Positions 4,360 to 22,027 of a DNA stretch of 24,000 nucleotides are shown here, piece by piece. The DNA is from Nitrososphaerales archaeon (GTDB lineage: Archaea > Thermoproteota > Nitrososphaeria > Nitrososphaerales > CADDZS01): positions 9,945 through 33,944 of the forward strand of contig JASHPQ010000110.1 in assembly GCA_030037995.1 (NCBI GenBank), in the 5' to 3' direction. Under the pieces are notes generated by a model that ran no database searches, was not told where the DNA came from, and was given only the letters and a program-made list of their open reading frames with translations. A program made the position numbers and the translations under genes. Position 1 is the first letter of the stretch. Every line of letters begins with the position of its first letter.

Positions 4360-6003
4360 TTAAACAAGAGCGCGCGGATAATACTCGCCGAAAACCGTCC
4401 TCAGAGCGTCGCTTATTTCCCCCGTAGTAACGCCGGCTTTCGTTGCTTGAATTATGAAGGGAACAAGATTATTCTCATCTCCGTGACTCCTCCGTGAAGC
4501 TCGTTCCTGCAATGCGGAAATGGCCTTTTCACAGGAGGATCTGTCACGTTTTCTCCTGAAGTCTTGCAGGTGACTCAGCTGTCTTTCGATGGATTTTTTA
4601 GAAATTTGAAGAACTTTGAGTGGTTCTCTCTCCTCGCTCTGGAACATATTGACACCAACGACAACCTTCTTTTTTTCGTCGACTTCTTTTTCGTACTTGT
4701 AGGCGCTGTTCTGAATTTCTTTTTGAATGTAGCCGGCCTTGATGGCCTCTAGGGCTCCGCCTAGTCGCTCGATCTTTTCGAGCTCTTCGTTTGCAAGAGC
4801 TTCGATTTCGTCCGTCAGACATTCCAAGTAGTAGGAACCTCCCAAAGGGTCCGCCGTTTTGATTACCCCAGATTCTTCCGCGATGATCTGCTGTGTTCGG
4901 AGAGCTATCGTCACGGCGTCTTCAGAGGGCAAACCGAGCGCCTCGTCAAAGGAGTTGGTATGCAGTGACTGGGCACCTCCTAGTACCGCAGCAAGTGCCT
5001 GCACGGAGACCCGGATGACGTTGTTGTGCGGTTGTTGCGCGGTGAGTGTTTCTCCGCTCGTCTGCGCGTGGAACTTTAGCTTCATGGAGTTTTCGTTCCT
5101 GGAATTGAACCGATCTTTAACGATCTTTGCCCAAATTCTCCTTGCTGCCCTAAACTTCGCAATCTCCTCCAAAAAGTCATTTCGACATGCAAAGAAAAAC
5201 GAGAGCTGATCACAGAAAGCGTCTATGGCAAATCCTCTATCAATTACTCCCTTGACGTACTCAATAGCATCCGCGAACGTGAAAGCAAGCTCTTGAACCG
5301 CGCTGGCTCCCGCCTCCCGCATGTGATAACCAGATATGCTGATCGGATGCCATTTCGGCATTTCCTTGGAGCAGAAGGTTATGAGATCGATGCTGAGGTC
5401 GAATGAGGGATCCGGAGGATAAATGAAAGTATTCCGCGCCGCGTACTCTTTCAAAATATCGTTTTGAGTCGTCCCCCTCAGAGTCGATCTCGAGATCCCG
5501 TTTGCTTCAGCCGCAACGACGTACATCGACAACATGATCGACGCGGTTGCGTTAATCGTCATGCTCGTCGAAACTTTGTCAACTGGAATGTCTGACAGTA
5601 GGGTGTCCATGTTTTCCAGAGTGCTTATTGCTACTCCCACCTTGCCAACTTCCCCCTCGGATCTCGAGCTGTCTGAGTCGAAACCCAGCTGCGTCGGCAG
5701 GTCGAAGGCAATGCTCAAACCCGTCTGCCCTCGCTCCAGCAAGTACTTGAATCGCCTGTTCGTGTCTTCAGCGGTTCCAAAGCCGGAGTACTCACGCATC
5801 GTCCACAAACGCTCCCGGAACATTTCACGATAGATTCCACGAGTGAATGGAAAGATCCCTGGTTCCTCGTTTATTTCGCGAGTTGTTGTCGAAGAATAAA
5901 AGGACTTGACTGGGATTCCCGAATCGGTTTCGAACTTCTTTTCGTCTTTCACCTTTCGGTCTTGATTCAGGACAGTCAAATGAGTCATGCTCGCCTCATT
6001 CAT
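4360..6003 (-). CDS. mcmA: Methylmalonyl-CoA mutase, catalytic (substrate-binding TIM-barrel) subunit. It has no fused B12 domain.
   Basis: It carries 'FPFTRGIY...LWTMREYSGFGTAEDTN', 'GLSIAFDLPTQLGFDSD', 'TSMTINA', 'GTTQNDILKEYAARNTFIYPP', 'SISGYHMREAGAS' and 'AARRIWA'. The Tyr (..EYSGF) and Arg (..AARNT) at the carboxylate-binding positions fit a true MCM. GGGAGA lies 6-11 nt upstream of ATG 6003. Confidence 0.92.
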   Translation of the reverse strand: MNEASMTHLTVLNQDRKVKDEKKFETDSGIPVKSFYSSTTTREINEEPGIFPFTRGIYREMFRERLWTMREYSGFGTAEDTNRRFKYLLERGQTGLSIAFDLPTQLGFDSDSSRSEGEVGKVGVAISTLENMDTLLSDIPVDKVSTSMTINATASIMLSMYVVAAEANGISRSTLRGTTQNDILKEYAARNTFIYPPDPSFDLSIDLITFCSKEMPKWHPISISGYHMREAGASAVQELAFTFADAIEYVKGVIDRGFAIDAFCDQLSFFFACRNDFLEEIAKFRAARRIWAKIVKDRFNSRNENSMKLKFHAQTSGETLTAQQPHNNVIRVSVQALAAVLGGAQSLHTNSFDEALGLPSEDAVTIALRTQQIIAEESGVIKTADPLGGSYYLECLTDEIEALANEELEKIERLGGALEAIKAGYIQKEIQNSAYKYEKEVDEKKKVVVGVNMFQSEEREPLKVLQISKKSIERQLSHLQDFRRKRDRSSCEKAISALQERASRRSHGDENNLVPFIIQATKAGVTTGEISDALRTVFGEYYPRALV

Positions 6004-6018: not shown

Positions 6019-6981
6019 TTAACGGTTCTCTTTCCTGAGAATGTACTTTTGAGCTAATTGATGTGCCGCGGCATCTGGATCGATATCTTTTTTCAAAAGT
6101 CGATTGAGCATGGTAGCAAATTCTGGATCTCTTGGAAGCACGGCGGTCAACTCCGAGATCACTAAGTCACTGATCCTCTTAGTCAGCTCTTTCTGCAATT
6201 TCATCGAGGATTCAGCCGACGAGCTCCCCGACTTCTTCAAAAATTCTCCGTGATCCTCGATCGCAGTCACCAATTCATTCATCCCTTCGGATGACCTGGC
6301 GCTCACCTTTATGGCTCTTTGCTGCCAGCCGGATTCCTTTGCGGAGAGGACAGAACCGAGATTGTATAACACTTTGTCCGCACCAGGCAGATCGCACTTG
6401 TTTACTGCAAAAATGTCTCCGATTTCAACCAACCCAGCCTTGGCGGCTTGTATCTCGTCACCGAGCTCTGGCATCAAAACAACTATTATAGTGTCCGCTA
6501 CGTCCACTATTTCTACTTCCGTCTGACCGATTCCGACAGTCTCCACAAACACAATATCAAAACCTGCCGCGTCAAGTGTCCTAACCACGTCTTTGGATGC
6601 GCGCGACAATCCGCCTTCGTCTCCCCTCGACGCCATGCTCCTGATGTAGACATTTGGATCAAGAGAGTGGTCTAACATTCTGACTCGATCTCCCAAGATG
6701 GCCCCTCCAGACACCGGACTGGAAGGATCAACGGCCAATACGGCGACTTTTTTCTCTTTCAGTCGGTACGACTTTACAAGCTGATCCACGAGAGAACTCT
6801 TGCCGGTTCCGAGCGGCCCAGTCACGCCTATTATGTGCGCTCGACCCGTGTGCATGTATATCTCTTTCATGAGCGACGAGTAATCGGGCTCTTCGTTTTC
6901 AACGATCGTAATAGCTTTTGAGAGAGAGTTTCTTTCACCCCTTAAAACCCGCTCCGAAACAGTTGGCAACTGGAACTGCAT
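6019..6981 (-). CDS. meaB: MeaB/ArgK-type G-protein chaperone for B12-dependent mutases.
   Basis: It has the P-loop 'GVTGPLGTGKSS', then 'AVLAVDPSSPVSGGAILGDRVRM', 'ETVGIGQTE' and 'VNKCD' (the NKxD motif). It lies 15 bp upstream of mcmA on the same strand. The track ORF extends to GTG 7056, but that would run over the neighbouring promoter, so I prefer ATG 6981 (MQFQLPTV...). Confidence 0.9.
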   Translation of the reverse strand: MQFQLPTVSERVLRGERNSLSKAITIVENEEPDYSSLMKEIYMHTGRAHIIGVTGPLGTGKSSLVDQLVKSYRLKEKKVAVLAVDPSSPVSGGAILGDRVRMLDHSLDPNVYIRSMASRGDEGGLSRASKDVVRTLDAAGFDIVFVETVGIGQTEVEIVDVADTIIVVLMPELGDEIQAAKAGLVEIGDIFAVNKCDLPGADKVLYNLGSVLSAKESGWQQRAIKVSARSSEGMNELVTAIEDHGEFLKKSGSSSAESSMKLQKELTKRISDLVISELTAVLPRDPEFATMLNRLLKKDIDPDAAAHQLAQKYILRKENR

Positions 6982-7047
6982 TCCGAAACAGAGATTTATC
7001 AATCTTGAAACGAAGGCCCATTCAATTTCGGAGAAAGGAAAGTGAGG

Positions 7048-7053
7048 TATAAT
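7048..7053 (+). promoter_or_regulatory. TATAAT/TATA-like element upstream of the tRNA-binding-domain gene.
   Basis: 'GGTATAATC' sits about 40 nt upstream of ATG 7091. GGTGGTGA lies immediately before the ATG. Confidence 0.3.
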
Positions 7054-7090
7054 CACAAGAGTAATCTACCGGGCCTTGGGTGGTGAAATT

Positions 7091-7865: not shown

Positions 7866-8372
7866 CTTGATCAAGGCCTTACCTCTACCGACCATATCTC
7901 CTTCTTTCACAAAGATCTCCTCGACGACGCAGTCGCGAGGAGCTTTGATCTGAGCTTCCATTTTCATCGCCTCGAGGACTATTAGGGCGTCTCCTTCCTT
8001 CAAAGTGTCTCCCTCCTTCACGGGGAGCTTGACGATTTTGGCCGGGAAGTTTGAGGCAACCAGTTCGTTTGCAGTAGCAATTAGCGAAGAGGTGTGATGC
8101 TCCGTTTCTAGGCTGCCGGTTCTTGAGGTCACCCTCCTTCCGTTTGCGATGAAGGATACGGCGGTTTGAGTCCTTTCTAACTGAATGATTGAATAGACTT
8201 TTCCTTCGACGGAAAGAATCACCCTGTCCTTATCTCGTCTCAGGATAGTGATCTTGGCCTTTCCTCTTTTTCCGCCTTTGACTAGTGCAACATACTCTTC
8301 GACATCGGCATTGTCAGACGAGTCAATCTCGACGTCTCTGACCTCTTGGCCGATCGCAATTTTATAGTCCAT
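7851..8372 (-). CDS. accB: Biotin carboxyl carrier protein.
   Basis: The C-terminal biotinyl domain has 'GDALIVLEAMKMEAQIKAP' (the biotinylation motif EAMKM). ATG 8372 (MDYKIAIG...) overlaps the accC stop by 11 nt, suggesting translational coupling. Confidence 0.85.
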   Translation of the reverse strand: MDYKIAIGQEVRDVEIDSSDNADVEEYVALVKGGKRGKAKITILRRDKDRVILSVEGKVYSIIQLERTQTAVSFIANGRRVTSRTGSLETEHHTSSLIATANELVASNFPAKIVKLPVKEGDTLKEGDALIVLEAMKMEAQIKAPRDCVVEEIFVKEGDMVGRGKALIKLKFR

Positions 8373-9885: not shown

Positions 9886-9936
9886 TGGATCACTCGTCTA
9901 CGAATTGCTGTCCTTTCTCTTCTTCCGTTGGAGAAG

Positions 9937-11502
9937 CTAAAGCGGAATATTCCCGTGTTTTTTCGTCGGTCTTTGTTCGCTTTTGTCAGAAAGGAGACTC
10001 AGCGCTCGGACTATTTGATAACGAGTCTCTCGGGGAAAGATAACAGAGTCGATTATCCCCCTTTCTGCGGCGATGAAAGGGTTCAGGAATTTCTCTGTAT
10101 ATTCCTCCACTGCTTTGTCCTTGAAGCTTTGATCCGGATGGGTTTCGAGCTCCCGGCGGTAAAGTATCTTAACAGCTCCTTCTGGGCCCATTACCGCCAG
10201 CTGAGCAGAGGGCCAAGCAAAGTTCAAGTCAGCTTTGGAGTACTTGCTACCCATCGCACAGTAGGCGCCACCGTAAGCCTTTCTGGTTATGATTGTTATT
10301 TTGGGAACGGTCGCTTCGCAGTAGGCATAGAGCAACTTAGAGCCATGCCTGATTATGCCGCCAGACTCTTGATCCACTCCAGGCATATAGCCCGGTACGT
10401 CTACCAGTGTGATTACTGGGATGTTGAAAGAGTCGCAAAATCTGATGAATCTAGCTGCCTTGTTCGAGGAATCAATGTCAAGCGCGCCAGCAAGCTGCAT
10501 TGGTTGATTCGCAACAAGGCCAACGCTTTTTCCATCGAATCTCGCGAACGCGATGATGATATTCGGAGCCCAATCGGATTGAACCTCCAAGAAATCATGA
10601 TCATCTACTATTTCAGAAATCACGGATTTCATATCATATGGTTTGTCGGACTCATGAGGAATCAATGTGTCCAGCACGTGATTTGCTCGCGTCGGGCTGT
10701 CGGTCGCGTCGACCATTGGAGGGAATTCGGAGTTATTGGAGGGGAGGAAAGAAAGGAGCTTTCTAATCTGGCTGAAGCAGTCTTCTTCATTCTCAGAAAC
10801 AAAATGAGCCACGCCGCTTTTGGTTGCGTGCACCTCCGCGCCTCCGAGCTGTTCGAACGTGACATCCTGCCCGAGCGCTTCCCTTACTATGTCAGGGCCG
10901 GTGATGAACATGTTGCCGATGCGGTCGACCATGAATACAAAGTCAGTCATGGCAGGTGAGTAAACCGCCCCGCCGGCGCAGGGCCCCAGAATCCCGGAGA
11001 TCTGCGGGATCACTCCAGAAGCAAGCGTGTTTCGAAAGAAAATCTCGCTATAGGCTGCCAAGCTCTGCACCCCTTCCTGAATCCTAGCACCACCGGAGTC
11101 GCACAAACCAATTATTGGGGCACCAGCTTTCATGGAAAGATCCATCACCTTGTTGATTTTCCTGCCAAACACCTCTCCCAGCGAACCTCCGAAGACTGTG
11201 AAATCGTGGGCGAAAATGAAAACGGCTCTCCCATCTATCGTCCCGTATCCTGTGACGACCCCGTCGCCGTAGTATTTTTCACCGGACTTACCGTTCTCCT
11301 CCGATCCGCTGAGGGCGAACTTGTCTATCTCGACGAAGGAATCCCTGTCAAGCAAAGCATCGATCCTCTCTCTCGCTGTTTTCTTGCCCCGGTGGTGCTG
11401 GGCGTCGATACGAGTCTTGCCGCCTCCCAAATTGGCGGATTCATTCATGGTATTGAGCTGATCGACGATTCGGGTCATCCCACTCGAGACTTCGTTATCC
11501 AT
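9937..11502 (-). CDS. pccB: Carboxyltransferase subunit (propionyl-CoA carboxylase beta / acyl-CoA carboxylase CT).
   Basis: It has 'GKKTARERIDALLDRDSFVE', 'DGVVTGYGTIDGR.VFIFAHDFTVFGGSLG', 'PIIGLCDSGGARIQEG' and 'ITLVDVPGYMPG...E..GIIRHG.KLLYAY'. The track start is TTG 11526. ATG 11502 lies about 34 nt from a TTTAAAT box and is preferred. Confidence 0.93.
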   Translation of the reverse strand: MDNEVSSGMTRIVDQLNTMNESANLGGGKTRIDAQHHRGKKTARERIDALLDRDSFVEIDKFALSGSEENGKSGEKYYGDGVVTGYGTIDGRAVFIFAHDFTVFGGSLGEVFGRKINKVMDLSMKAGAPIIGLCDSGGARIQEGVQSLAAYSEIFFRNTLASGVIPQISGILGPCAGGAVYSPAMTDFVFMVDRIGNMFITGPDIVREALGQDVTFEQLGGAEVHATKSGVAHFVSENEEDCFSQIRKLLSFLPSNNSEFPPMVDATDSPTRANHVLDTLIPHESDKPYDMKSVISEIVDDHDFLEVQSDWAPNIIIAFARFDGKSVGLVANQPMQLAGALDIDSSNKAARFIRFCDSFNIPVITLVDVPGYMPGVDQESGGIIRHGSKLLYAYCEATVPKITIITRKAYGGAYCAMGSKYSKADLNFAWPSAQLAVMGPEGAVKILYRRELETHPDQSFKDKAVEEYTEKFLNPFIAAERGIIDSVIFPRETRYQIVRALSLLSDKSEQRPTKKHGNIPL

Positions 11503-11532
11503 GGTTCCGGAGTCGTTCTTTTCCAAACGTGC

Positions 11533-11661: not shown

Positions 11662-11916
11662 GTGCAGAACGAGCTCTTGTTGTCGGAAGAGACGGTCACT
11701 GTCAATAAAAAGGGCCAATTTACTATTCCTGCCAGATTTAGAAAACAGTTCCGAATACAGGAAGGCACGAAGTTACTCGTAACTCATGATGAATTTGCGA
11801 TTGTCATTCGTCGACTCCTTGACATGGACGATCTTGTGGGGATTCATTCCGGAAAGACTGGTGCAGAGGAATTGCTCAAAGAGCTTGATCAGATGCGAAA
11901 GCAGGACAGGTACTAG
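11662..11916 (+). CDS. vapB: AbrB/SpoVT/MazE-fold antitoxin (VapB-like).
   Basis: It has 'VTVNKKGQFTIPARFRKQFRIQEGTKLLV', the swapped-hairpin DNA-binding motif. The protein is 84 aa with a GTG start. It ends 11 bp upstream of the PIN gene. Confidence 0.75.
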   Translation: MQNELLLSEETVTVNKKGQFTIPARFRKQFRIQEGTKLLVTHDEFAIVIRRLLDMDDLVGIHSGKTGAEELLKELDQMRKQDRY

Positions 11917-11927
11917 GTTCGCAACAA

Positions 11928-12326
11928 ATGGTACGCACAGTGGATACTCGATTTCTGCTCCTCCAGGTGATCGCTGACAGCGAAGAATTGAAATCGAAAG
12001 TACGTTCTAAGATGCTCGAACTTCGTCAGGAAATGGCCCTCGTCCCGACCATCGTCCTACACGAAGTGTACAAGATCGAATTTCACAGATTCGGCAGAGA
12101 AGCCGCAGATGTCCAGCTGAAATCGATCGAGACTTCGGGACTGAAAATCGAGGAACTGACCGTGGAGATTGCCCGAATCGCTGCGGTGCTGCGGTGCAAG
12201 TACACAGATTTACCCGTGGCAAATTCGATAATCGCAGCAACGGCGATCGTCAAAGGATCGAAAGTCGTTTTTTCTGATGACGAGCAGTTCGCCAAAGTGA
12301 AGGAGATAAGGGCGGAATGGTTTTGA
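11928..12326 (+). CDS. vapC: PIN-domain protein (VapC-like toxin).
   Basis: The protein is 132 aa with 'VDTRFLL' (Asp6), 'LHEVY' (Glu46), 'ANSIIAATAI' and 'VVFSDDEQF' (Asp117/118). Its size and its pairing with an AbrB antitoxin are typical of VapBC. Confidence 0.8.
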   Translation: MVRTVDTRFLLLQVIADSEELKSKVRSKMLELRQEMALVPTIVLHEVYKIEFHRFGREAADVQLKSIETSGLKIEELTVEIARIAAVLRCKYTDLPVANSIIAATAIVKGSKVVFSDDEQFAKVKEIRAEWF

Positions 12327-12760: not shown

Positions 12761-13687
12761 TCACTTTTTGCCCTGCGAAATTTTTCTGTAAAATTCTCCG
12801 TGCTTGTCCTGCTCGACCAGTTTCTCCTTTACGAGCTTTGCGCAACAGGCTTCGAGTACATCTGGATCGATACTCGTGCCGTACTTTTCGTCTAGCTCTT
12901 TTTCGATCTGAAAGAACCCCTTCCAGTGCATATCTCCCAATTCTTCCAAGACTCGGGATCTCAATTCTCCTTCATCTATCGTCGATTCGACGCTCTTGGT
13001 TTGAGCCTCCGGCGCTTCCATGTCCGAAGTGGCCGCTTTTTCGACAAGCGGAACCCATTCGTTTATGGCACTTTTGAGTTCCTCCATATTAGCTGGTCTG
13101 TACTTTTGCAGGAATTCCGTCTTCGTGGTGGACGGATCGCCAGGCAGATTGTGCCAGACTACGTTGAGCGATGGCCTGAGAATACCCCTGTTACCCGAAA
13201 CTGTGACGATCTGCTCCAAAGGAATTGCAAACGCATCCCGCTCTTGAAGTAACTCCTGGACATCTGCATCTTCTTGAGCTGATTTGCCCACGGCGAACAC
13301 CAGTCGTCGATTGGTCAGTAGTAGTGCCCCTTCCTGAACGGCGTGAGAGTTCTTGCGGATCACATTATCCTGAGTCTTCAGGACAGCTTCTTTTGAAGTA
13401 TCGAAGGACACACTGGTAGGTCTTGCTGTCGAGAGCGTCTCGTTCCCAATTGTATAGTTCTGGACATCTAGATTCAAGTTAGAGGACGAAGAAGAGGAGT
13501 ACTGCTGCGAACCAAGAGTATCTTCGTAAATGTATCCACAGTAGGAACAAGTCTCATCGGTGGAGTTTCGAGCAGTTCCGCACATTGGACATTTCGAGAG
13601 TTTGTTGTCGGCCAAAAACAGACAATCGTTGTTCCTTGATTGCATTTCATTCTTTCGGGTATTTCTCACCCCGATGGACTTGGGCAT
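12761..13687 (-). CDS. Uncharacterised multidomain protein: N-terminal zinc ribbon, Ser-rich linker, PH/GRAM-like domain and C-terminal winged-helix-like domain.
   Basis: The protein is 308 aa with an ATG start. It has C33-x2-C36-x10-C47-x2-C50 ('CPMCG...CSYCG'). The stretch 'GALLLTNRRLVFAV...IPLEQIVTVSGNRG' resembles GRAM / bacterial-PH / GLUE strand patterns. The C-terminal 'MHWKGFFQIEKELDEKYGTSIDPDVLEACCAKLVKEKLVEQDKHGEFYRK' looks like a winged-helix domain. Confidence 0.75.
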   Translation of the reverse strand: MPKSIGVRNTRKNEMQSRNNDCLFLADNKLSKCPMCGTARNSTDETCSYCGYIYEDTLGSQQYSSSSSSNLNLDVQNYTIGNETLSTARPTSVSFDTSKEAVLKTQDNVIRKNSHAVQEGALLLTNRRLVFAVGKSAQEDADVQELLQERDAFAIPLEQIVTVSGNRGILRPSLNVVWHNLPGDPSTTKTEFLQKYRPANMEELKSAINEWVPLVEKAATSDMEAPEAQTKSVESTIDEGELRSRVLEELGDMHWKGFFQIEKELDEKYGTSIDPDVLEACCAKLVKEKLVEQDKHGEFYRKISQGKK

Positions 13688-13820: not shown

Positions 13821-14435
13821 TTGGAATTCGAACGGCTTGGAGACGACGAACGCAAATTGCGCGAGTTGCTTCGCCTGCGAAGTTTGAGAAGACTCAAAAT
13901 TAGCAATCCTATTTGTTTGACTTCAGTTGACTCGACTCAGTCATTCATCGCTAACAAGCTGCACAGTTCGGCCGAAGGAGATCTCGTCATTAGCAGAGTG
14001 CAGACTGCCGGTAAAGGTCGCGAGGGCAGATCATGGTTCTCCCAGGAAGGCGGACTCTGGATGACTATGACCCTGCTTCCCCCGAACGCCGACATCCTTG
14101 CCAGAATTCCTTCAATCGCCACGAACTCGATCCTCAAGACGCTGGAGGATTTCGGGGCGCGAGGGTGCTCTATCAAGCCGCCGAATGATGTGTATTGCGG
14201 CGGAAGAAAGATTGCAGGTGTGCTGGCAGATGCAAGCGTCACGGGATCGAGCTCTGTTGTTTATCTGGGAGTGGGAATCAATGTGAACAACGACACTTCT
14301 GAAATTGATAGGATCTCCGAAACTGCAACAAGCATGCGATACGAAACAGGCAGTACACTCGATCTGATGGAGTTCGCGGCCTCACTAATTGCGAGTCTTG
14401 ATTTCGAATACGCTCGGGCCATTGCTGAGATGTAA
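13821..14435 (+). CDS. birA: Biotin-[acetyl-CoA-carboxylase] ligase, class I (no N-terminal HTH).
   Basis: It has 'VDSTQSF', 'VQTAGKGREGRSWFS' (the GxGRxGRxW biotin/ATP loop) and 'NDVYCGGRKIAGVL'. The protein is 204 aa. Only non-ATG starts are available (TTG 13821). Confidence 0.85.
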   Translation: MEFERLGDDERKLRELLRLRSLRRLKISNPICLTSVDSTQSFIANKLHSSAEGDLVISRVQTAGKGREGRSWFSQEGGLWMTMTLLPPNADILARIPSIATNSILKTLEDFGARGCSIKPPNDVYCGGRKIAGVLADASVTGSSSVVYLGVGINVNNDTSEIDRISETATSMRYETGSTLDLMEFAASLIASLDFEYARAIAEM

Positions 14436-14775: not shown

Positions 14776-16530
14776 ATGACGAACGGGTCTTACTGGATGC
14801 TAAAGTTGGAAGGTCTCGAAGAAAAGAAACGGCAAGAAAGAGATGGCGATTTTGATCCGAAGAGAATGAGCATCCTAAGGGAGAAGATCCACAACTGGGA
14901 GAAATCTGTCCTCGATCCGGTGCTTTCAGAAACTCCAGAAAGGAAAGATCAGTTCGAGAATTTTTCGGGGATTACACTGAAGAGGATCTATACTCCGGAA
15001 GATGTGACGGATCTGGACTACTCCAGAGACCTGGGGATGCCTGGCGAGTATCCTTACACTCGGGGAGTATACCCAACGATGTACCGGGGGCGGCCCTGGA
15101 CGATGCGCATGTTCTCTGGATTTGGTACCGCAGATCAGACGAACAAGCGACTCAAGTACTTGCTGAGAGAGGGAGAAACCGGCCTTTCAATCGCTTTCGA
15201 TATGCCTACCCTCTACGGTTATGACGCGGACAGCGACAGGGCGGAGGGCGAAGTTGGGAAGTGCGGAGTGTCCGTTTCCTCCTTGGCAGACATGGAAACG
15301 ATCTTCGACTCTATTCCGCTGGATCAAGTAAGCACCTCCATGACAATCAATGCTCCCGCCGCGGTGCTGACGGCGATGTACGCCGCGGTCGGGGAAAAGC
15401 AGGGAGTTCCACTGGAAAAACTCCGAGGTACTGTACAAACGGACATCCTGAAGGAATACATTGCGCAGAAAGAGTGGGCCTTTCCTCCAGACGCCCATCT
15501 GCGAATTATCCGGGATCTCATGGTCTTTTGCACTGAGCGCATGCCCTACTGGCATTACATCAGCATCTCAGGGTATCACATCAGGGAGGCGGGAGCGAGC
15601 GCTGTGCAGGAGCTTGCTTTCACACTCGCAGACGGTTTCTCGTATGTGGATCTTGGAAGAGAGGCAGGTCTGGACGTAGACTCGTTTGTTCCGCGGTTTT
15701 CCTTTTTCTTCAACTGCGACATGGACTTTTTCGAGGAGATTGCAAAGTTTAGGGCGGCGAGACGTATCTGGGCGACCGTCATGAAGGAAAAGTTCGGTGC
15801 AAAAAATCCGAGGTCAATGCTCCTACGCTTTCACACGCAGACTTCGGGCGTTTCGCTGACTTGGCAGCAACCCCTTAACAATGTCATCCGGACAACGGTA
15901 GAGGCGCTCGCAGCCATTTTGGGAGGCACACAATCGCTTCACACCAATTCTTATGACGAGGCCTGGGCCCTTCCCACAGAAGACGCCGTCACAATCGCCC
16001 TGAGGACTCAGCAAATTCTCTCGGAAGAAACTGGAATCACAGATGTCGTAGATCCGCTAGGTGGCTCTTACTACCTGGAGTGGTTGACCGCCGAAATGGA
16101 AGAGCAGGCGTACAAGTATTTCGAAAAGATCTACCAGATAGGTGGGGTTCTGGAAGCAATCAAGCAGGGGTTCCTTCAGAGGGAGATAGCAAACACCTCT
16201 TATCACAAGACCAAGGAGCTAGAGTCCGGGAAACGCTTTGTGGTGGGAGTCAACAAATATGAGGTCAATGAAGAAAAGCCGATTGACTATCTGAAAGTAA
16301 ATCAAGCCCTCCGGAGAAAAGCGGTGACCAAGCTTCGGACTTTGAAGAAACGGAGGGACAAAAGCCGGGTTTCGCAATCGCTGGAAAACCTGAGAAAAGC
16401 ATTCGAGGACCCCGGCTCGAACTCCATGTATCCTATTCTCGAGGCGGTGAAGTCATATGCAACGCTCCAGGAAATAATGGATGTGGGAAGGCAGGTATTC
16501 GGCGGATGGAAGGAACCGGTAATCGCCTGA
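14776..16530 (+). CDS. B12-dependent acyl-CoA mutase catalytic subunit, second paralog, with an isobutyryl-CoA-mutase-like active-site signature.
   Basis: It has 'YPYTRGVY...PWTMRMFSGFGTADQTN', 'GLSIAFDMPT', 'TSMTINA', 'GTVQTDILKEYIAQKEWAFPP', 'SISGYHIREAGAS' and 'AARRIWA'. Phe and Gln occupy the positions where the 4360-6003 paralog has Tyr and Arg. GGAG lies 9 nt before ATG 14776. Confidence 0.92.
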   Translation: MTNGSYWMLKLEGLEEKKRQERDGDFDPKRMSILREKIHNWEKSVLDPVLSETPERKDQFENFSGITLKRIYTPEDVTDLDYSRDLGMPGEYPYTRGVYPTMYRGRPWTMRMFSGFGTADQTNKRLKYLLREGETGLSIAFDMPTLYGYDADSDRAEGEVGKCGVSVSSLADMETIFDSIPLDQVSTSMTINAPAAVLTAMYAAVGEKQGVPLEKLRGTVQTDILKEYIAQKEWAFPPDAHLRIIRDLMVFCTERMPYWHYISISGYHIREAGASAVQELAFTLADGFSYVDLGREAGLDVDSFVPRFSFFFNCDMDFFEEIAKFRAARRIWATVMKEKFGAKNPRSMLLRFHTQTSGVSLTWQQPLNNVIRTTVEALAAILGGTQSLHTNSYDEAWALPTEDAVTIALRTQQILSEETGITDVVDPLGGSYYLEWLTAEMEEQAYKYFEKIYQIGGVLEAIKQGFLQREIANTSYHKTKELESGKRFVVGVNKYEVNEEKPIDYLKVNQALRRKAVTKLRTLKKRRDKSRVSQSLENLRKAFEDPGSNSMYPILEAVKSYATLQEIMDVGRQVFGGWKEPVIA

Positions 16531-16585: not shown

Positions 16586-17131
16586 ATGTCATCTTTGCAG
16601 CTTCTAAGTGAACCCGAGAAAGAGTCCAGAAGAATCAGGATACTCGTAGCAAAGCCCGGACTAGACGGCCACGATCGCGGCGCCCTCGTGCTCTCGCGTG
16701 CGTTTCGAGACGCCGGGATGGAGGTCATCTATTCTGGACTTCTCCCCACTCCCGAACAGGTCGCTCAGATGGCAGTCGATGAGGACGTTGACGTCGTTGC
16801 GCTGAGTTTACTCAACGGGGCGCACATGACGGCCTTTCCGAAGGTTGTGCAATTTCTCAAGGAAAAAGGAGGCGGGGATATCTTGGTCGTCGGCGGAGGC
16901 ATCATACCGGATGTGGACAAGCCGAAACTCGAGAGAATGGGGATAAAGGGAAATTTTGGTCCGGGGACATCGCTCAAGACGATTGTGGACTTTATCAAAG
17001 ACTCCGTTAAGGAAAACCGGGATAGAATTTCGAAGAAAGGAGTGGAGGCTCGTGTCTCGAAACGTAGCGCGTCTGCTTCGGCAAAAAAGTCGAAGAAAAA
17101 ATTAGTTAGGCGTCCGAATCGTTCAAGGTAA
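16586..17131 (+). CDS. Acyl-CoA mutase small subunit (cobalamin-binding domain) with a basic C-terminal tail.
   Basis: It has 'RILVAKPGLDGHDRGALVLSRAF' (the DxHxxG B12 lower-ligand motif), 'VVALSLL' (the SxL motif) and 'VVGGGIIP' (the GG motif). It starts 55 bp downstream of the catalytic subunit. Confidence 0.9.
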   Translation: MSSLQLLSEPEKESRRIRILVAKPGLDGHDRGALVLSRAFRDAGMEVIYSGLLPTPEQVAQMAVDEDVDVVALSLLNGAHMTAFPKVVQFLKEKGGGDILVVGGGIIPDVDKPKLERMGIKGNFGPGTSLKTIVDFIKDSVKENRDRISKKGVEARVSKRSASASAKKSKKKLVRRPNRSR

Positions 17132-17132
17132 C

Positions 17133-17147
17133 TTTTTTTCTAATTTT
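17133..17147 (+). terminator. Oligo-T termination tract after the mutase operon.
   Basis: A T7 run (17133-17139) followed by TAATTTT comes directly after the stop codon. It lies in the 15-bp gap between the convergent genes. Confidence 0.35.
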
Positions 17148-17812
17148 CATTTTGAGCTATGGAGCGCTTCTTTCTGTCCTGTTAGATCGCGTATCTTAAT
17201 GAGGTCGCTTTGGAGGAGGTTCTTCAGCGAGCGATTCCGGAACACCGATGCCGGATGGTAGGTCGCGAGAACTGGAATATCTGATTTTAGAGCTTTTAAC
17301 AGCTTACCGTGATTGGATCCCATCTTCTTCTCCCCTGTAAAGTATTGAAGAGCTGTCGCCCCGAGACTGCAGATCAATTTGGGTTTCAGGATCTCGATCT
17401 GTTTTTCCAGATAAGTTGAGGTACAAGTCTGGATTTCGTCTGGTTTGGGCTTTCGATTCTTCGGAGGACGACACTTTACGATGTTTGTAATGTAGACTCG
17501 CTTCCTGTCAAGACCTGCATTCTTCAAAAGCTCATCTAGAAGCTTTCCTCCCGAACCTACGAACGGTTCCCCCTTAAGATCCTCATTCCTTCCCGGTCCC
17601 TCCCCGACGAAGACGACGGAAGGATCTTCAATGTTTCCCGAGCCGGGGACTGCGTTTGTCCTCGTCTCGCACAGCTGGCAGAGTTTGCACGAGATTATCC
17701 GCCGATTCAGGTATTTGATCGATCTAGACTTCTTTTTTTCAGGCTCCGAATTGTTCAACGGTGAGAACCCCCGGAACGGTTGCTCATGCAGGGGTGATTT
17801 TTTATACCTCAA
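17147..17812 (-). CDS. udg: Family-4 uracil-DNA glycosylase (Fe-S type).
   Basis: It has 'CKLCQLC' plus later Cys residues (4Fe-4S ligands), 'VVFVGEGPGRNEDLKGEPFVGSGGKLL' (motif A, GE(A/G)PG) and 'YHPASVFRN' (motif B). The start is uncertain: TTG 17812 overlaps the peptidase stop, and TTG 17758 is an alternative. Confidence 0.85.
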   Translation of the reverse strand: MRYKKSPLHEQPFRGFSPLNNSEPEKKKSRSIKYLNRRIISCKLCQLCETRTNAVPGSGNIEDPSVVFVGEGPGRNEDLKGEPFVGSGGKLLDELLKNAGLDRKRVYITNIVKCRPPKNRKPKPDEIQTCTSTYLEKQIEILKPKLICSLGATALQYFTGEKKMGSNHGKLLKALKSDIPVLATYHPASVFRNRSLKNLLQSDLIKIRDLTGQKEALHSSK

Positions 17813-18917
17813 TCAGTTCTCGTTTCACAGTAGTCAGAATCTTGGGTTTGTCCTTAGTTACTAGAATATCGTCCTCGATCCTCACCCCTCCAAAATCCGG
17901 CACGTAGATTCCTGGCTCCACGGTGAGCACCATACCCGGCCTCAATTTTTTCTTGTATCGAGGCGACAGGCCCGGTCCGTCATGAACGGAGAGGCCGAGC
18001 GAATGTCCAGTAGAGTGAATGAACCGCCCCTTGTATTCCGTTGAATCTATTAAACCGGCCACTTTGGAGTGGACGAAATCCCCCGTATTCTCCGGCGTGC
18101 ACAGCTCGGTTCCTAGTTCTACCGCGCGTTGGACGATATCGTACATCTCCCTTTGTCTCTTCGAAGCCCTGCCAAAAACGAGAGTCCGGGTAATGTCGGA
18201 GCAGTAACGATTGTACCTTGCCCCGTAATCACAAAGAACAAACTGCCCCCTTCTCAGCTTTGTTACTCCCGGGGAATAGTGGGGCTTGGCGCTATTTTTT
18301 CCGAACGCGACTATTGAATCGAAGGAAACGCCGCTCGCCCCGGCGTCTTGCATTTCAAAAGCCATTTTGGCGGAAACAGAGCTCTCGGTAACGCCTTCGC
18401 CGAGCATGGACGGAATCTTCTTGTACGTGTCAGAAGCGATATCGCAAGCCTTCCGGATCAGGGCGATCTCACCTTCGTCTTTGATCAGGCGAGCGGCCTC
18501 AAAGGCTTCTGATTCGTCAAGTAGTTTGGATCCTTTGAAAACCGATTTTATCTGAAGATAAGAGCTGTAGGTAAGTTCCGACGAGTTAAGCGCAATAGTT
18601 TTTCCGGGGGTACTTGTCGCAATCGACTTTAGTCTCGCTATCATGCGGTCTCTGTCCTGGTCAGCAAAGACCACGACGCCATTTTCAAAGGACCTCGCTA
18701 TTGGCTCCTCCAGCAATGACGTGACGAGTGAAATCTTACCATTTCTTTCAGCTACCAGGTAGGAGCTTTCAAAGAGTCCGTAAGGATACCCAGTGACATA
18801 GAAAAAAGACGCGTCGAGGTGCGGTTCAGCTCCATTAGCCAGTACGAAGGTGTCTGCTCTCTCTCCGATCTGCTCGAAGATTTTCTCTGCTCTTTTCTTA
18901 GAATCTATCTTGGGCAT
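17802..18917 (-). CDS. pepQ: M24B Xaa-Pro (amino/di)peptidase.
   Basis: It has 'VLCDYGARYNRYCSDITRT', 'HSTGHSLGLSVHDGP' and 'MVLTVEPGIYVPDFGGVRIEDDILVT', the pita-bread-fold metal ligands D, D, H, E, E. ATG 18917 (MPKIDSKK...) is preferred over the track TTG 18941. Confidence 0.9.
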   Translation of the reverse strand: MPKIDSKKRAEKIFEQIGERADTFVLANGAEPHLDASFFYVTGYPYGLFESSYLVAERNGKISLVTSLLEEPIARSFENGVVVFADQDRDRMIARLKSIATSTPGKTIALNSSELTYSSYLQIKSVFKGSKLLDESEAFEAARLIKDEGEIALIRKACDIASDTYKKIPSMLGEGVTESSVSAKMAFEMQDAGASGVSFDSIVAFGKNSAKPHYSPGVTKLRRGQFVLCDYGARYNRYCSDITRTLVFGRASKRQREMYDIVQRAVELGTELCTPENTGDFVHSKVAGLIDSTEYKGRFIHSTGHSLGLSVHDGPGLSPRYKKKLRPGMVLTVEPGIYVPDFGGVRIEDDILVTKDKPKILTTVKRELIEV

Positions 18918-18991
18918 CCGCGTTCGGAGGTCGAGGTTCAAGTCTTGGTAGAAAAAGCCTTTTGGATGGAAGCGAAATGGTATGGTTCCAA

Positions 18992-20176
18992 ATGAACTTC
19001 GACCTCACGGACGAACAGAAACTCATTTTGAGCGTCGTCGACGAAACCTGCCAGAAGATCCGGCCTATCGAGGATCGGTTTTATCTCGAACGCCGCTTCA
19101 ACGATCAAGTACTTCCGATTTTCAAGGAGGCGCATCTCCTAGGTTTTCCGATCTCGAGAAGCTACGGTGAAGGTCAGGGAGCAGATGCTCTGACTTACGC
19201 TCTGGTCTTGGAGAGAGTAGGCAGAGAGGGTACGGGAATCCGAACGTTTTTCTCTGGTCATGTTTCTCTGGGCCAGAGTACCTTGCAAAAGTGGGGCAGC
19301 GAAGAACAAAAACAACGCTATCTGCCACGCACTACTTCTGGCGAGCTGATCATGGCATTCGGCCTCACCGAACCGACCGCAGGATCGGATCCAGCTTCGA
19401 TGAAGACCAGTTTCGAGGAGAGAGGAGGCAGCTACTACCTGAACGGTCAGAAGGCTTGGATTTCCAACGGATCTATTGCAGATCTGATAGTGGTTTTTGC
19501 GTACCCAAAAGGAAAGTCGGAAGGGATGTGCGCCTTTCTCGTCGAGACCGAAGCAGAGGGATTCTCGGCGGAACCGATTAAAAACAAACTCGGCCTCCCC
19601 ACCTCGGATACGGGACTGCTGTATTTCAATGACTGCAGGGTGTCCAGAGACAATATGCTTGGTCCGCCGGGCAAGGGGCTAAGTGTTGCCTACACCGCTT
19701 TGATGAGTGGAAGACTTTCCGTGGCGGCGGGGAGTGTAGGTGTACTACAGGATTGCCTTGACGAGGCCGTAAAGTACGCAAGGGAAAGAGTGCAGCATAA
19801 GAAGAAAATTGGGAAGCATCAGCTGATCCAGCGAGAAATTGCGAAGATTTCTCTAGATCTCGAAAGTTCGAGGCTGATGACGTACAAGGCGGCCAGCCTG
19901 AAAGTAAAGTCGGACGAATCACCCGACAATTACGAGCTGCGAGCGGAGGCCGACTGGTGGATCGCGCAGGCAAAATACTACGCCGCAAACGCGTCGTTCT
20001 GGGCGGCTGACCGAGCCGTGCAAATATTCGGGGCGAACGGCTTTTCCTTCGAAAACAGGCCGGCTAGACACCTCGCAGACACGCGGGCATGCAGGATCTA
20101 CGAAGGAACTGACCAGATCCTTGAGCAAAAGATCGCGATCAAACTACTTGGATCCGAGTTTGAAGCCTTCTCGTAA
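18992..20176 (+). CDS. Acyl-CoA dehydrogenase (short/branched-chain-like).
   Basis: It has 'MNFDLTDEQ', 'AFGLTEPTAGSDP', 'NGQKAWISNG', 'QIFGANGF' and 'RIYEGTDQI' (the catalytic Glu in the YEGT motif). The track start TTG 18962 and ATG 18977 are in-frame alternatives. Confidence 0.92.
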   Translation: MNFDLTDEQKLILSVVDETCQKIRPIEDRFYLERRFNDQVLPIFKEAHLLGFPISRSYGEGQGADALTYALVLERVGREGTGIRTFFSGHVSLGQSTLQKWGSEEQKQRYLPRTTSGELIMAFGLTEPTAGSDPASMKTSFEERGGSYYLNGQKAWISNGSIADLIVVFAYPKGKSEGMCAFLVETEAEGFSAEPIKNKLGLPTSDTGLLYFNDCRVSRDNMLGPPGKGLSVAYTALMSGRLSVAAGSVGVLQDCLDEAVKYARERVQHKKKIGKHQLIQREIAKISLDLESSRLMTYKAASLKVKSDESPDNYELRAEADWWIAQAKYYAANASFWAADRAVQIFGANGFSFENRPARHLADTRACRIYEGTDQILEQKIAIKLLGSEFEAFS

Positions 20177-20286: not shown

Positions 20287-21075
20287 TTGCCAGAAATAAT
20301 TGTGTGCTTCAAGCACGTGATTGATGAAACCGAGCTGAGGATTGACAGAGCGAACAATAAAATCAACTTCGAGGGGGCAAAGACAAAGATAAGCGATGAT
20401 GACAAGAACGCGATCGAAGAAGCCGTTCGCATCAAGGAGAAAAACGGAGGGAGCATCACAGGAGTTTGCCTCGCCGGACCTGACGCCAAAAAGAGCGTAA
20501 AGGAAGCCCTTGCAATGGGATGCGACAGGGCCCGGTTGATCTCCGATCCCGCGTTCCAGGACGAAGACGCAATCGCTACCGCATACGTCCTTTCCCAAGC
20601 GATCAAGAAGATCGGAAAGTACGACATTGTATTAACTTCGACGGGCACGACCGATTCTTACACCGGAATCGTCGGCCCGGCTCTCGCAGAATTTCTCGAT
20701 CTGCCGCAGCTTACGTTTGCTTCCAAAATCACGATTTCTGGCAACCATGCGACCGTGGACCGCCTTCTGGAAGATGGCGTTGAAACTGTGGGGGCAGAGC
20801 TGCCGGTGCTCGTTACCGTGGCTAGAGAAATAAATCAGCCGCGATTTCCCACATTACTTCAGATAATGAGCGCCGGAAAGAAAGAGCTCCTGGAGTGGAA
20901 CGCGGCGAATCTCGGGGTAGATCCCTCTTTAGTCGGCAAAGTGGGATCCATGGTTGAAGTGACGGGCCTGAACGTGCCAAAGTCTTCGCGAAAGAAGATT
21001 ATCTTCGAAGGAAAACCTGACGAAGCGGCGGGCAAGTTGGCCGAAGCTCTCGTGAAAGAGGGCGCGGTAAAGTAG
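20287..21075 (+). CDS. etfB: Electron transfer flavoprotein, beta subunit.
   Basis: It has 'IIVCFKHVIDE', 'DDKNAIEEAVRIKE', 'DIVLTSTGTTDSYTGIVGPALAEFLDLPQLT' and 'INQPRFPTL..IM.A.KK'. A TTG start is preceded by GGAAAGGA. Confidence 0.92.
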   Translation: MPEIIVCFKHVIDETELRIDRANNKINFEGAKTKISDDDKNAIEEAVRIKEKNGGSITGVCLAGPDAKKSVKEALAMGCDRARLISDPAFQDEDAIATAYVLSQAIKKIGKYDIVLTSTGTTDSYTGIVGPALAEFLDLPQLTFASKITISGNHATVDRLLEDGVETVGAELPVLVTVAREINQPRFPTLLQIMSAGKKELLEWNAANLGVDPSLVGKVGSMVEVTGLNVPKSSRKKIIFEGKPDEAAGKLAEALVKEGAVK

Positions 21076-21076
21076 C

Positions 21077-22027
21077 ATGTCAAACATTCTGGCTTTCTCG
21101 GATTCAGCTGACTCCTGTCTGGAGCTCGTAACTCTGGGGAAAAATCTCGGCGGAAGCTTCTCGATTGCGGTTCTAGGTTCGGGTGACCTGTCTTCTCAAT
21201 CAAAGAAGCTCTCCGTGGACGGCGTCTCAAGCATTTACGAAGTCTCGCATGAATCCCTCAAAAACTTGCTTGCGGGGCCGGCTACAGACGCCCTCGAGGC
21301 AGTTTCCAAGAGGGCCAGACCCGATCTTATTCTGCTAAGCTCGACCAAGAAAGGAAAGGAGCTTGCGGGTCGGCTCGCGGCTAGGCTAAAGGTGGGGTGC
21401 ATTTCCGATGCCATGAAACTATCCGTTCAGGGCAGCGGCTTTGCAGCTGACAGGCTGGTTTGGGGAGGGAATGCTATTGCGTCAGTATCTTCCAAGGGAG
21501 CGGCCGTGGTCACCATTCCACTCCGAGCCTACGCGCGGGCGTCGAATCCATCCAGCCCTAACATAATCCAAGTGGACGATTTTCAGCCCAAACCAGTCAA
21601 TGTTAGCGCAATTGGAAAGAAGGAAAAACCCAAGGGCCAAGTGAGCATCAAGGATGCCGAAATTATTGTCTCTGCTGGCAGGGGCTTCAAGAAGAAGGAG
21701 GACCTGTCGATGCTCGAGGATCTCGCAAAAGTCCTGAATGCGGTGGTGGGGGCGTCCCGGCCCCTGACCTCCGACCTCGGTTGGGTCTCGGAAGACAGGC
21801 AGGTGGGCCTGTCCGGGACAACCGTGAAACCGAAGCTTTACATCGCCGTAGGCATATCGGGGCAGATTCAGCACCTCACGGGCATGCGAGAATCGAAAGT
21901 AATCGTCGCGATCAACACCGACAAGAACGCCCCAATTTTTCAAGAGTGCGACTACGGGATCGTCGGAGACCTGTACGCCGTCGTGCCGGAGCTCACGAAG
22001 GCTTTCAAGGCACAGCTTGGTCGATAG
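21077..22027 (+). CDS. etfA: Electron transfer flavoprotein, alpha subunit.
   Basis: It starts 1 nt after the etfB stop. It has 'IIVSAGRG', 'VVGASRPL.SDLGWVSEDRQVGLSGTTVKPKLYIAVGISGQIQHLTGM' and 'IVAINTDKNAPIF' (the FAD-binding C-terminal domain). Confidence 0.92.
   Translation: MSNILAFSDSADSCLELVTLGKNLGGSFSIAVLGSGDLSSQSKKLSVDGVSSIYEVSHESLKNLLAGPATDALEAVSKRARPDLILLSSTKKGKELAGRLAARLKVGCISDAMKLSVQGSGFAADRLVWGGNAIASVSSKGAAVVTIPLRAYARASNPSSPNIIQVDDFQPKPVNVSAIGKKEKPKGQVSIKDAEIIVSAGRGFKKKEDLSMLEDLAKVLNAVVGASRPLTSDLGWVSEDRQVGLSGTTVKPKLYIAVGISGQIQHLTGMRESKVIVAINTDKNAPIFQECDYGIVGDLYAVVPELTKAFKAQLGR

Follow-up and report, generated by a model that had tools for sequence, protein, structure and literature searches.

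A probable isobutyryl-CoA mutase-type enzyme with separate large and small subunits in a Nitrososphaerales archaeon

Two mutase paralogs in one window

What does the second acyl-CoA mutase of this archaeon rearrange? The window, i.e., the whole analyzed stretch of 24,000 nucleotides, has two mutase large-subunit genes, called here copy 1 and copy 2, and the first-pass annotation proposed that copy 2 is not a redundant methylmalonyl-CoA mutase (MCM) but an isobutyryl-CoA mutase (ICM)-type enzyme for a non-carboxylated acyl-CoA. In MCM, the substrate carboxylate is held by Tyr89 and Arg207. Acyl-CoA mutases have been classed by the same two sites (PMC7238569, citing Jost et al., 2015). The features concerned are as follows.

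4360..6003, minus strand: copy 1, Tyr/Arg-type MCM large subunit (WTMREYSGFG, KEYAARNTF, Y/A/R clade)
6019..7056, minus strand: MeaB-type G-protein chaperone, the sole one in the window (TIGR00750, 336 bits; PF03308)
14776..16530, plus strand: copy 2, IcmA-type acyl-CoA mutase large (substrate-binding) subunit, 584 aa (PF01642, TIGR00641, F/Q columns)
15112-15114, plus strand: codon of copy 2 Phe113
15466-15468, plus strand: codon of copy 2 Gln231
16586..17131, plus strand: small B12-binding subunit (IcmB/HcmB-like), 181 aa (PF02310, TIGR00640, DGHDRG)
18962..20176, plus strand: short-chain acyl-CoA dehydrogenase, ACAD (three ACAD Pfam domains)
20287-21075, plus strand: electron-transfer flavoprotein (ETF) beta (PF01012/PF00766, ETF pair)
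21077-22027, plus strand: ETF alpha (PF01012/PF00766, ETF pair)

Both large-subunit frames were present in an ORF check of the window, and scanning the window for Rfam families and tRNAs gave no matches. As the first-pass annotation had it, the paralogs align along their lengths (51% identity over 538 residues), both retain the radical-handling motif ISISGYH(M/I)REAGA, and the genome is archaeal, as judged from the nearest homologs with a name, which are from Nitrososphaerales MAGs. Copy 2 matches PF01642 with 739 bits over 513 residues and TIGR00641 with 759 bits, and its radical-handling motifs are intact (SISGYHIREAGA, GYH, and TVQTD in TVQTDILKE).

Pocket residues

The motifs from which copy 1 had been read as Tyr/Arg and copy 2 as Phe/Gln are found in the two frames. 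Copy 1 has WTMREYSGFG and KEYAARNTFIYPP, with Tyr72 and Arg190 as the pocket pair, and copy 2 has WTMRMFSGFG (15097-15126) and KEYIAQKEWAFPP (15451-15489), with Phe113 and Gln231. The pocket region is gap-free in phmmer alignments of copy 2 with solved structures. Phe113 falls on SEQRES residue 88 of Propionibacterium shermanii MCM (1REQ_A), which is Tyr89 when numbered from the gene; Gln231 falls on SEQRES residue 206 (Arg207). This is the residue equivalence that the annotation had assumed by eye. In HcmA (4R3U), the columns of Phe113, Ala140, and Gln231 hold Ile90, Asp117, and Gln208, respectively; Ile at the first site had also been anticipated. IcmF (4XC6) was outside the top five PDB matches of copy 2 and was aligned via chimeras of the window MeaB and copy 2 fragments. 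Phe113 corresponds there to chain residue 618 (Phe598, the F of RMFAGEG), Gln231 to chain residue 762 (Gln742), and Ala140 to the A of LSTAFD.

Streptomyces IcmA orthologs (566 aa), some of which carry the name isobutyryl-CoA mutase large subunit, have Phe80 and Gln198 in the columns of Phe113 and Gln231, at an identical 118-residue spacing. These orthologs are real database proteins and stand as a proxy for the characterized S. cinnamonensis IcmA. The literature numbering, Y89/R207 for MCM, F80/Q198 for IcmA, F598/Q742 for IcmF, and I90/D117/Q208 for HcmA, agrees with the residue counts of the alignments. Since the carboxylate sites of copy 2 hold Phe and Gln, as in characterized ICM and IcmF, its pocket would suit an uncharged C4 acyl group. 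Judged from its sequence, copy 2 is a member of the ICM family and not an MCM.

The Phe/Gln family

Phe and Gln occur together in all 120 nearest database homologs of copy 2 and in all 80 retrieved genome loci (12 archaeal and 68 bacterial), so that the pair in copy 2 is no chance substitution. Copy 2 is part of a large, coherent Phe/Gln (F/Q) family of two-subunit mutases, and not an odd MCM. The family is found in Nitrososphaerota, Bathyarchaeia, and Thermoplasmatales and in many bacteria, and the Streptomyces IcmA orthologs belong to it. Among 150 representatives taken at 50% identity, 18 have F and Q, 68 have Y and R, and none has Y with Q. Exactly two columns reach 85% conservation or more within the F/Q set and within the Y/R set and yet differ between the sets, and these are the pocket sites. 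The same 150 representatives include many uncharacterized pocket variants of the acyl-CoA mutase superfamily. One F/A/Q representative of 913 aa (P0170) was suspected to be IcmF-like, but on inspection it was not. A plasmid tblastn search for named ICM and IcmF references matched only Y/R MCMs (Streptomyces canus, Halopenitus, Acetoanaerobium, Paraburkholderia, and S. rimosus), which served solely as Y/R controls.

A neighbor-joining (NJ) tree places copy 2 with the F/A/Q sequences, and copy 1 in a Y/A/R clade alongside split MCMs and the MCMs of human and P. shermanii. Copy 2 is inside an archaeal F/A/Q clade with 99.8% bootstrap support, and this clade is in turn part of a core F/A/Q clade, supported at only 57%, that also holds bacterial members and the Streptomyces IcmA orthologs. 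Support for the core clade was 0.195 in a first tree of all representatives, because fragmentary sequences were included, and rose to 0.57 when seven of them were dropped. HcmA is outside the F/A/Q clade.

Profile scores and signature columns give the same grouping. A bacterial F/Q profile scores copy 2 at 870 bits versus 763 for a Y/R profile, and with both pocket motifs masked the values are 816 and 725 bits; the advantage is thus 91-107 bits. A profile built from Streptomyces sequences only gives 638 for copy 2 and 540 for copy 1. Copy 2 is only 53% identical to Streptomyces IcmA overall, a value close to those for split Y/R MCMs (52-54%). Of eight family-signature columns, copy 2 matches eight, HcmA five, and copy 1 none.

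Small subunit and gene neighborhood

The small-subunit gene lies directly downstream of copy 2, its start being 56 bp past the copy 2 stop, and the split large and small format claimed for this enzyme stands. The encoded protein matches PF02310 and TIGR00640 (161 bits), has an intact cobalamin-ligand motif DxHxxG in the form of DGHDRG, and ends in a basic tail rich in Lys, Arg, and Ser. Among solved structures, it is matched best by 2YXB (136 bits) and HcmB (4R3U_C, 132 bits). The pairing recurs in the family: 10 of the 12 archaeal loci and 48 of the 68 bacterial ones have a small-subunit gene no more than 8 kb away from the F/Q large subunit, and in most archaeal loci this gene is directly 3' of it.

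MeaB adjoins copy 1 and is about 8 kb from copy 2, on the opposite strand. It could serve one or both mutases; at seven other loci (L009-L012 and L015-L017), MeaB adjoins the F/Q mutase. Copy 1 is flanked by MeaB and by a biotin carboxylase/BCCP/carboxyltransferase set at 7851-11526, and with these genes it would carry out the methylmalonyl-CoA to succinyl-CoA step. It is not part of the ICM-type enzyme.

The ACAD has its best solved matches in the butyryl-CoA dehydrogenases 4L1F, 5OL2, and 1BUC and in SCAD (193-215 bits). It is a candidate butyryl-CoA dehydrogenase downstream of the mutase, its substrate being a guess because even its best solved matches reach only about 200 bits. An ACAD gene is directly 3' of the small subunit in four archaeal loci (L008, L011, L012, and L013). 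The ETF pair presumably accepts the electrons from the ACAD; counted at F/Q loci only, ETF genes occur no farther than 8 kb from the mutase at L006 and at 19 of the 68 bacterial loci. Together with the grouping with IcmA orthologs, the IcmF alignment, and the complete set of signature columns, these ACAD/ETF neighbors, which recur in other archaea and in bacteria, support the central proposal of the annotation, i.e., a putative ICM-type mutase for a non-carboxylated acyl-CoA.

Comparison with known mutases

Streptomyces cinnamonensis IcmA/IcmB (EC 5.4.99.13) resembles the copy 2 system in having a separate large subunit and a B12 subunit of about 140-180 aa. Streptomyces IcmA has the motifs KEYIAQKEW and FDMPTL in common with copy 2 and falls in the same clade, and its profile scores copy 2 above the MCM paralog. 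Copy 2 differs from it by an N-terminal extension of about 33 residues, besides the low identity. As compared with Streptomyces IcmB, the archaeal small-subunit gene is adjacent to that of the large subunit and its product has the basic C-terminal tail. The Streptomyces genes are presumably unlinked and feed polyketide precursor pools.

IcmF of Cupriavidus metallidurans, a fusion of ICM and GTPase, shares Phe, Ala, and Gln with copy 2 Phe113, Ala140, and Gln231. It is a single chain of 1093 aa with B12 domain, G domain, and barrel, whereas the window has three separate genes. Copy 2 scores 281 bits with IcmF versus 582 with HcmA, and it fails the NCBIfam IcmF model NF045497 (349 bits, cutoff 1500).

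The motifs WTMRMFSGFG, GLSIAFDMPT, and KEYIAQKEW are identical in copy 2 and in homologs from Cuniculiplasma divulgatum, Thermoplasma acidophilum, and T. volcanium, which belong to the same archaeal F/Q clade. By tblastn, copy 2 has 61% identity with the related locus L015 from Cuniculiplasmataceae. In C. divulgatum, CSP5_0924, CSP5_0925, and CSP5_0926 are named isobutyryl-CoA mutase subunit A, subunit B, and G-protein chaperone, by annotation only, and the products of this operon have been detected by proteomics. Thermoplasmatales (Thermoplasma, Cuniculiplasma) have a tight large-small-MeaB operon, whereas MeaB in the window is beside the Y/R paralog.

Alternative substrates

An F/Q-pocket mutase could prefer another uncharged acyl-CoA, for example isovaleryl/pivalyl-CoA (PCM-like), 2-methylbutyryl-CoA, or other branched or short acyl groups. 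Isovaleryl/pivalyl-CoA is turned over slowly by IcmF, which has the same F/Q pair, and the superfamily is rich in the uncharacterized pocket variants mentioned above. The archaeal clade is, moreover, distinct, strongly supported, and 53% identical to Streptomyces IcmA. We regard this preference as unlikely. The F/A/Q triplet and all eight signature columns are those of the bacterial ICM-type set, and the neighboring ACAD most resembles dehydrogenases for straight short chains (butyryl-CoA). Kitanishi et al. in 2015 reportedly obtained efficient PCM activity in IcmF by removal of the Phe (F598A), and a native PCM is said to be without ICM activity; the Phe retained in copy 2 would thus favor ICM.

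Copy 2 would alternatively be a 2-hydroxyisobutyryl-CoA/3-hydroxybutyryl-CoA mutase (HCM/RCM-like) tapping the 3-hydroxybutyryl-CoA pool of a 3HP/4HB-type pathway. HcmA/HcmB of Aquincola tertiaricarbonis (4R3U) has the split architecture, and HcmA is the top solved structure for copy 2 (582 bits versus 488 for human MCM), with Gln at the second site and five of the eight signature columns in common. However, Gln is the only pocket residue shared: both HCM-defining residues are missing, Ile90 being replaced by Phe and Asp117 by Ala in copy 2, and HcmA does not join the F/A/Q clade. Copy 1 is likewise closest to HcmA (523 versus 500 bits), so that this similarity reflects the split-subunit lineage and not the substrate. 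An HCM-like activity is accordingly very improbable.

Known MCMs (1REQ, human 2XIJ, and the archaeal split enzymes) have the fold, the GYH/TxQxD radical machinery, and the B12 binding mode of copy 2 at 43-54% identity, but differ from it in Tyr89/Arg207 and in clade. That copy 2 is a redundant or regulatory MCM paralog, as database labels have it and as the presence of MeaB, propionyl-/acetyl-CoA carboxylase genes, and copy 1 all within 10 kb might suggest, is hardly credible at all, since both carboxylate-binding residues are missing from copy 2, all 68 Y/R-type representatives keep the Y/R pair and never mix it with Q, the window already has a genuine Y/R MCM, and tree, profiles, and signature columns cluster copy 2 with ICM.

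Proposed function

The products of 14776-16530 and 16586-17131 probably form an AdoCbl-dependent mutase of the IcmA/IcmB family, most likely interconverting isobutyryl-CoA and n-butyryl-CoA and feeding beta-oxidation. The large subunit would be a TIM barrel binding the acyl-CoA, and the small subunit would bind B12 through the His of DxHxxG. Isobutyryl-CoA and n-butyryl-CoA would be interconverted by the usual radical 1,2-shift in the pocket with Phe113 and Gln231. Whereas residue equivalence, family membership, subunit pairing, and the recurrent neighborhood are results of this analysis, we infer the substrate, the direction of flux, and the chaperone of this enzyme as follows: isobutyryl-CoA, derived from valine or isobutyrate, would probably be converted to n-butyryl-CoA, possibly with the help of the window MeaB, and n-butyryl-CoA would then be oxidized by the neighboring ACAD and ETF towards crotonyl-CoA and acetyl-CoA.

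It is conceivable, although doubtful, that the MCM-type and ICM-type large subunits of Nitrososphaerales and Bathyarchaeia share one small subunit and one MeaB. Two large-subunit genes occur with one MeaB gene in the window and in three other locus types (L016, L087/88, and L089/90). A single small-subunit gene was found for the window, L087, and L089/90; L016 yielded none. With such sharing, two catalytic barrels would draw on a single cofactor module, and the propionate/methylmalonyl-CoA and valine/butyrate fluxes would be coupled via a common B12 pool.

Significance

The annotation had also suggested that no enzyme of this kind had been characterized biochemically in Archaea. The literature search likewise found no biochemical characterization of an archaeal F/Q mutase. 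The novelty of the copy 2 enzyme is nevertheless limited, because the orthologous Cuniculiplasma divulgatum operon is already named ICM A, B, and chaperone and has been seen in the proteome. An archaeal ICM would leave the understanding of the enzyme class unchanged. A stable two-subunit form would be convenient for enzymology, and would be the first assayed from Archaea.

Nearly all archaeal F/Q proteins, those of Thermoplasma acidophilum and T. volcanium among them, carry the MCM label. Owing to these mislabels, MCM may be counted twice in metabolic reconstructions of Thaumarchaeota, Bathyarchaeia, and Thermoplasmatota, and the link from valine/isobutyrate to butyrate may be missed. The location of the putative ICM beside ACAD and ETF suggests that soil archaea may have a B12-dependent route for oxidizing branched C4 units through beta-oxidation, and such a route bears on heterotrophy or mixotrophy in Nitrososphaerales.

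Gene content of the window

The 24-kb window has a GC content of about 50%, and its proteins find their closest named relatives in Nitrososphaerales/Thaumarchaeota MAGs. Scanning it for Rfam families and tRNAs found none.

Genes of the window (coordinates, strand where assigned, product)
1072-2367, +, citrate synthase
2790-3317, ORF of 175 aa, no family match
3371-4123, -, alpha/beta hydrolase
4360-6003, -, mutase large subunit, copy 1
6019-7056, -, MeaB G-protein chaperone
7076-7450, +, tRNA-binding domain protein
7851-11526, -, BCCP, biotin carboxylase and carboxyltransferase
11662-11916, ORF of 84 aa, upstream of the PIN-domain ORF
11928-12326, +, PIN-domain protein
12761-13687, -, Zn-ribbon protein of 308 aa, weak zinc-ribbon match alone, otherwise without family
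13821-14435, +, BirA-like biotin ligase of 204 aa, TTG start
14776-16530, +, mutase large subunit, copy 2
16586-17131, +, B12-binding small subunit
17147-17812, -, family-4 uracil-DNA glycosylase
17802-18941, -, M24 Xaa-Pro dipeptidase
18962-20176, +, acyl-CoA dehydrogenase (ACAD)
20287-22027, +, ETF beta and alpha

The 84-aa and PIN-domain ORFs (11662-12326) resemble an inserted VapBC-type toxin-antitoxin pair, with the carboxylase genes on one side and the mutase region on the other. The BirA-like ORF matches a 243-position ligase profile only over positions 14-176. In the window and in several thaumarchaeal relatives (loci L006, L007, L008, and L087), such a ligase gene immediately precedes the Phe/Gln mutase; in the window, L006, L007, and L008 it stands between carboxylase genes and mutase.

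Specificity residues of the two copies

The two large subunits are 51% identical. Copy 1 reads WTMREYSGFG and KEYAARNTFIYPP, with Tyr and Arg, and copy 2 reads WTMRMFSGFG (15097-15126) and KEYIAQKEWAFPP (15451-15489), with Phe113 and Gln231, as quoted in the first-pass annotation. Aligned with solved structures by phmmer, copy 2 shows no gap across the two motifs. In P. shermanii methylmalonyl-CoA mutase (MCM; 1REQ_A), Phe113 and Gln231 fall on SEQRES residues 88 and 206, which are Tyr89 and Arg207 because the deposited chain lacks Met1. In the 2-hydroxyisobutyryl-CoA mutase (HCM) HcmA (4R3U_A), the same columns hold Ile90, the Ile expected at the first site, and Gln208 (chain index minus 11); where HcmA has Asp117, copy 2 has Ala140. 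Since IcmF had no place among the top five matches, chimeras of the window MeaB and copy 2 fragments were used as query; Phe113 then aligns with the F of RMFAGEG (chain residue 618) and Gln231 with the second Q of KEDQGQN (762). Subtraction of a 20-residue tag gives Phe598 and Gln742, which we take to be the literature numbers of the two sites. Database proteins of Streptomyces that were recovered with a probe sequence are 566 aa long, and several are called 'isobutyryl-CoA mutase large subunit' by their source; they carry F exactly at position 80 and Q exactly at 198, the numbering quoted earlier for IcmA of S. cinnamonensis. The copy 2 pocket lacks both carboxylate ligands of MCM and is the same as isobutyryl-CoA mutase (ICM) and IcmF at both sites.

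Conservation of the Phe/Gln pair

The pair (F/Q) is present in 120/120 nearest copy 2 homologs. Scanning one genome per species gave >600 matching stretches, and all of the best 80 loci, which were examined, have F/A/Q at three pocket columns. The archaea among them include Nitrososphaerota/Thaumarchaeota, 'Crenarchaeota', Bathyarchaeota, and Thermoplasmata/Cuniculiplasmataceae, and the many bacteria (55-61% identity) include Gaiellaceae and other Actinomycetota, Rubrobacter, Acidobacteriota, Nitrospira, Binatia, and Chloroflexota. When 1.84 billion cluster representatives were searched exhaustively with HMMER, the 150 best matches listed included 68 with Y/A/R, 18 with F/A/Q, and none with Y and Q together. 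Exactly two columns are conserved at ≥85% in both the bacterial F/Q and the Y/R sets yet differ between them, and these are the two sites. A looser criterion yields eight F/Q-signature columns (F; M and L of FDMPTL; Q, K, and E of AQKE; the YF pair in the AYKYFEK segment), of which copy 2 matches 8, copy 1 none, and HcmA 5. Judged from these sequence comparisons, the F/Q pair is a family property, and chance substitution is ruled out.

Dozens of the 150 representatives (within P0125-P0270) have neither Y/R nor F/Q, for example I-V-H, V-V-N, V-V-G, Q-D-H, V-V-V, or A-L-R, and point to many acyl-CoA-mutase-like subfamilies with uncharacterised substrates. A Paraburkholderia plasmid locus (L003, 4043-8209) encodes a split Tyr/Arg-type mutase with FGVVCGG replacing the conserved FHTQTSG segment, followed by a small subunit, a 392-aa ORF, and a MeaB-like gene; this enzyme may be another uncharacterised variant.

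Phylogenetic and profile placement

In a neighbor-joining tree of 516 columns, including representatives, locus proteins, PDB references, and Streptomyces IcmA orthologs, copy 2 falls within a monophyletic archaeal F/A/Q group (bootstrap 99.8%) nested in a core F/A/Q clade with bacteria and the Streptomyces orthologs (bootstrap only 57%). Copy 1 is found among Y/A/R proteins, with split bacterial and haloarchaeal MCMs and the human and P. shermanii MCMs. The deep node being only moderately supported, a profile test was added.

Profile scores in bits (bacterial F/Q; Y/R; Streptomyces-only)
Copy 2, full: 870; 763; 638
Copy 2, pocket motifs masked: 816; 725; 590
Copy 1, full: 759; 762; 540

The preference of copy 2 is kept after masking, so the signal extends along the whole protein, beyond the pocket alone. 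HcmA is the best solved match of copy 2 (582 bits vs. 488 for human MCM) and of copy 1 too (523 vs. 500 bits), and therefore reflects the split-subunit lineage rather than the substrate. Tree and profiles show copy 2 to be a member of the IcmA-type family. The earlier proposal of an ICM-type mutase is supported by residue columns, signature columns, tree, and profiles alike.

Small subunit and chaperone

The small-subunit gene starts 56 bp past copy 2, carries the cobalamin-ligand motif DGHDRG, and has the archaeal B12 subunit 2YXB and HcmB as best solved matches. The split format described for copy 2 is thus confirmed, and the pair encodes a predicted intact two-subunit AdoCbl acyl-CoA mutase. 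Small-subunit genes lie ≤8 kb from the F/Q large subunit at 10/12 archaeal and 48/68 bacterial loci. The window protein ends in a Lys/Arg/Ser-rich tail of ~35 residues (RISKKGVEARVSKRSASASAKKSKKKLVRRPNRSR; residues ~147-181, window 17026-17131), which HcmB and 2YXB lack; a thaumarchaeal ortholog in L087 has a similar tail.

In Thermoplasma acidophilum and Cuniculiplasma divulgatum (L091, L092), a tight large-small-MeaB operon begins with the F/Q gene, so in those lineages the F/Q enzyme is served by a small subunit and a chaperone of its own. Y/R and F/Q large-subunit genes occur within 17-24 kb, with one MeaB gene, in the window, L016, L087/L088, and L089/L090, all from Thaumarchaeota and Bathyarchaeia. 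One small-subunit gene was found in the window, L087, and L089/L090, each time next to the Phe/Gln gene, whereas L016 yielded none. Sharing of one small subunit and one MeaB by both large subunits in Nitrososphaerales and Bathyarchaeia is a rather doubtful idea.

The Bathyarchaeia small-subunit call in L090 (9763-10236) has 103 aa and starts past the cobalamin-ligand motif. The in-frame upstream sequence reads ...RPNGHDRGA... with stop codons before it, and the N-terminus is therefore divergent, frameshifted, or miscalled.

Proposed function

An ACAD gene directly follows the small subunit in archaeal loci L008, L011, L012, and L013 and lies ≤8 kb from the F/Q mutase at 6/12 archaeal loci; in L006 the mutase is flanked by both ACAD and ETFab. 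ETF genes are found ≤8 kb away at 19/68 bacterial loci, and one Bathyarchaeia locus has thiolase/DUF35 pairs after the small subunit instead. Among solved structures, the window ACAD is nearest to SCAD and to the Bcd/Etf-system butyryl-CoA dehydrogenases 4L1F, 5OL2, and 1BUC (193-215 bits), a resemblance that is no more than suggestive.

The copy 2 enzyme would interconvert isobutyryl-CoA and n-butyryl-CoA, and through it and the adjacent ACAD and ETF, carbon from valine or isobutyrate would enter beta-oxidation. The steps from propionyl-CoA to succinyl-CoA would fall to copy 1, MeaB, and the biotin carboxylase genes. There is a small chance that copy 2 acts on another uncharged substrate such as pivalyl- or isovaleryl-CoA, but its retained Phe favours ICM, since the F598A substitution is reportedly needed to turn IcmF into a good pivalyl-CoA mutase. 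An HCM-type activity is unlikely, as copy 2 has neither Ile90 nor Asp117. A redundant MCM is very unlikely, as pocket residues, family-wide F/Q conservation, and tree and profile placement all count against it. For the ICM reading, flux may also run in reverse, from butyryl-CoA to isobutyryl-CoA and on by valine degradation to propionyl-CoA and MCM; a hypothetical route from butyrate to isobutyryl-CoA has been discussed for bacteria (PMC7238569).

Predicted archaeal isobutyryl-CoA mutases

ICM was known only from bacteria according to a 2010 review (PMC2847961), and the literature that we searched describes no assay of an ICM from archaea. The first-pass view of such an enzyme as uncharacterised in archaea stands for biochemistry, but the prediction has already been made, by annotation in Thermoplasmatales. 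In C. divulgatum, the products annotated as ICM A, B, and G-protein chaperone were all detected as proteins (PMC7285479). Database proteins of this species share WTMRMFSGFG, GLSIAFDMPT, and KEYIAQKEW with copy 2, and from organism, UniRef name, and gene order we infer that CSP5_0924 is the motif-bearing protein. The T. acidophilum and T. volcanium homologs have the same three motifs and are labelled MCM. The window gene pair is a thaumarchaeal addition to the known IcmA/IcmB kind, and archaeal genes of this type are commonly mis-annotated.
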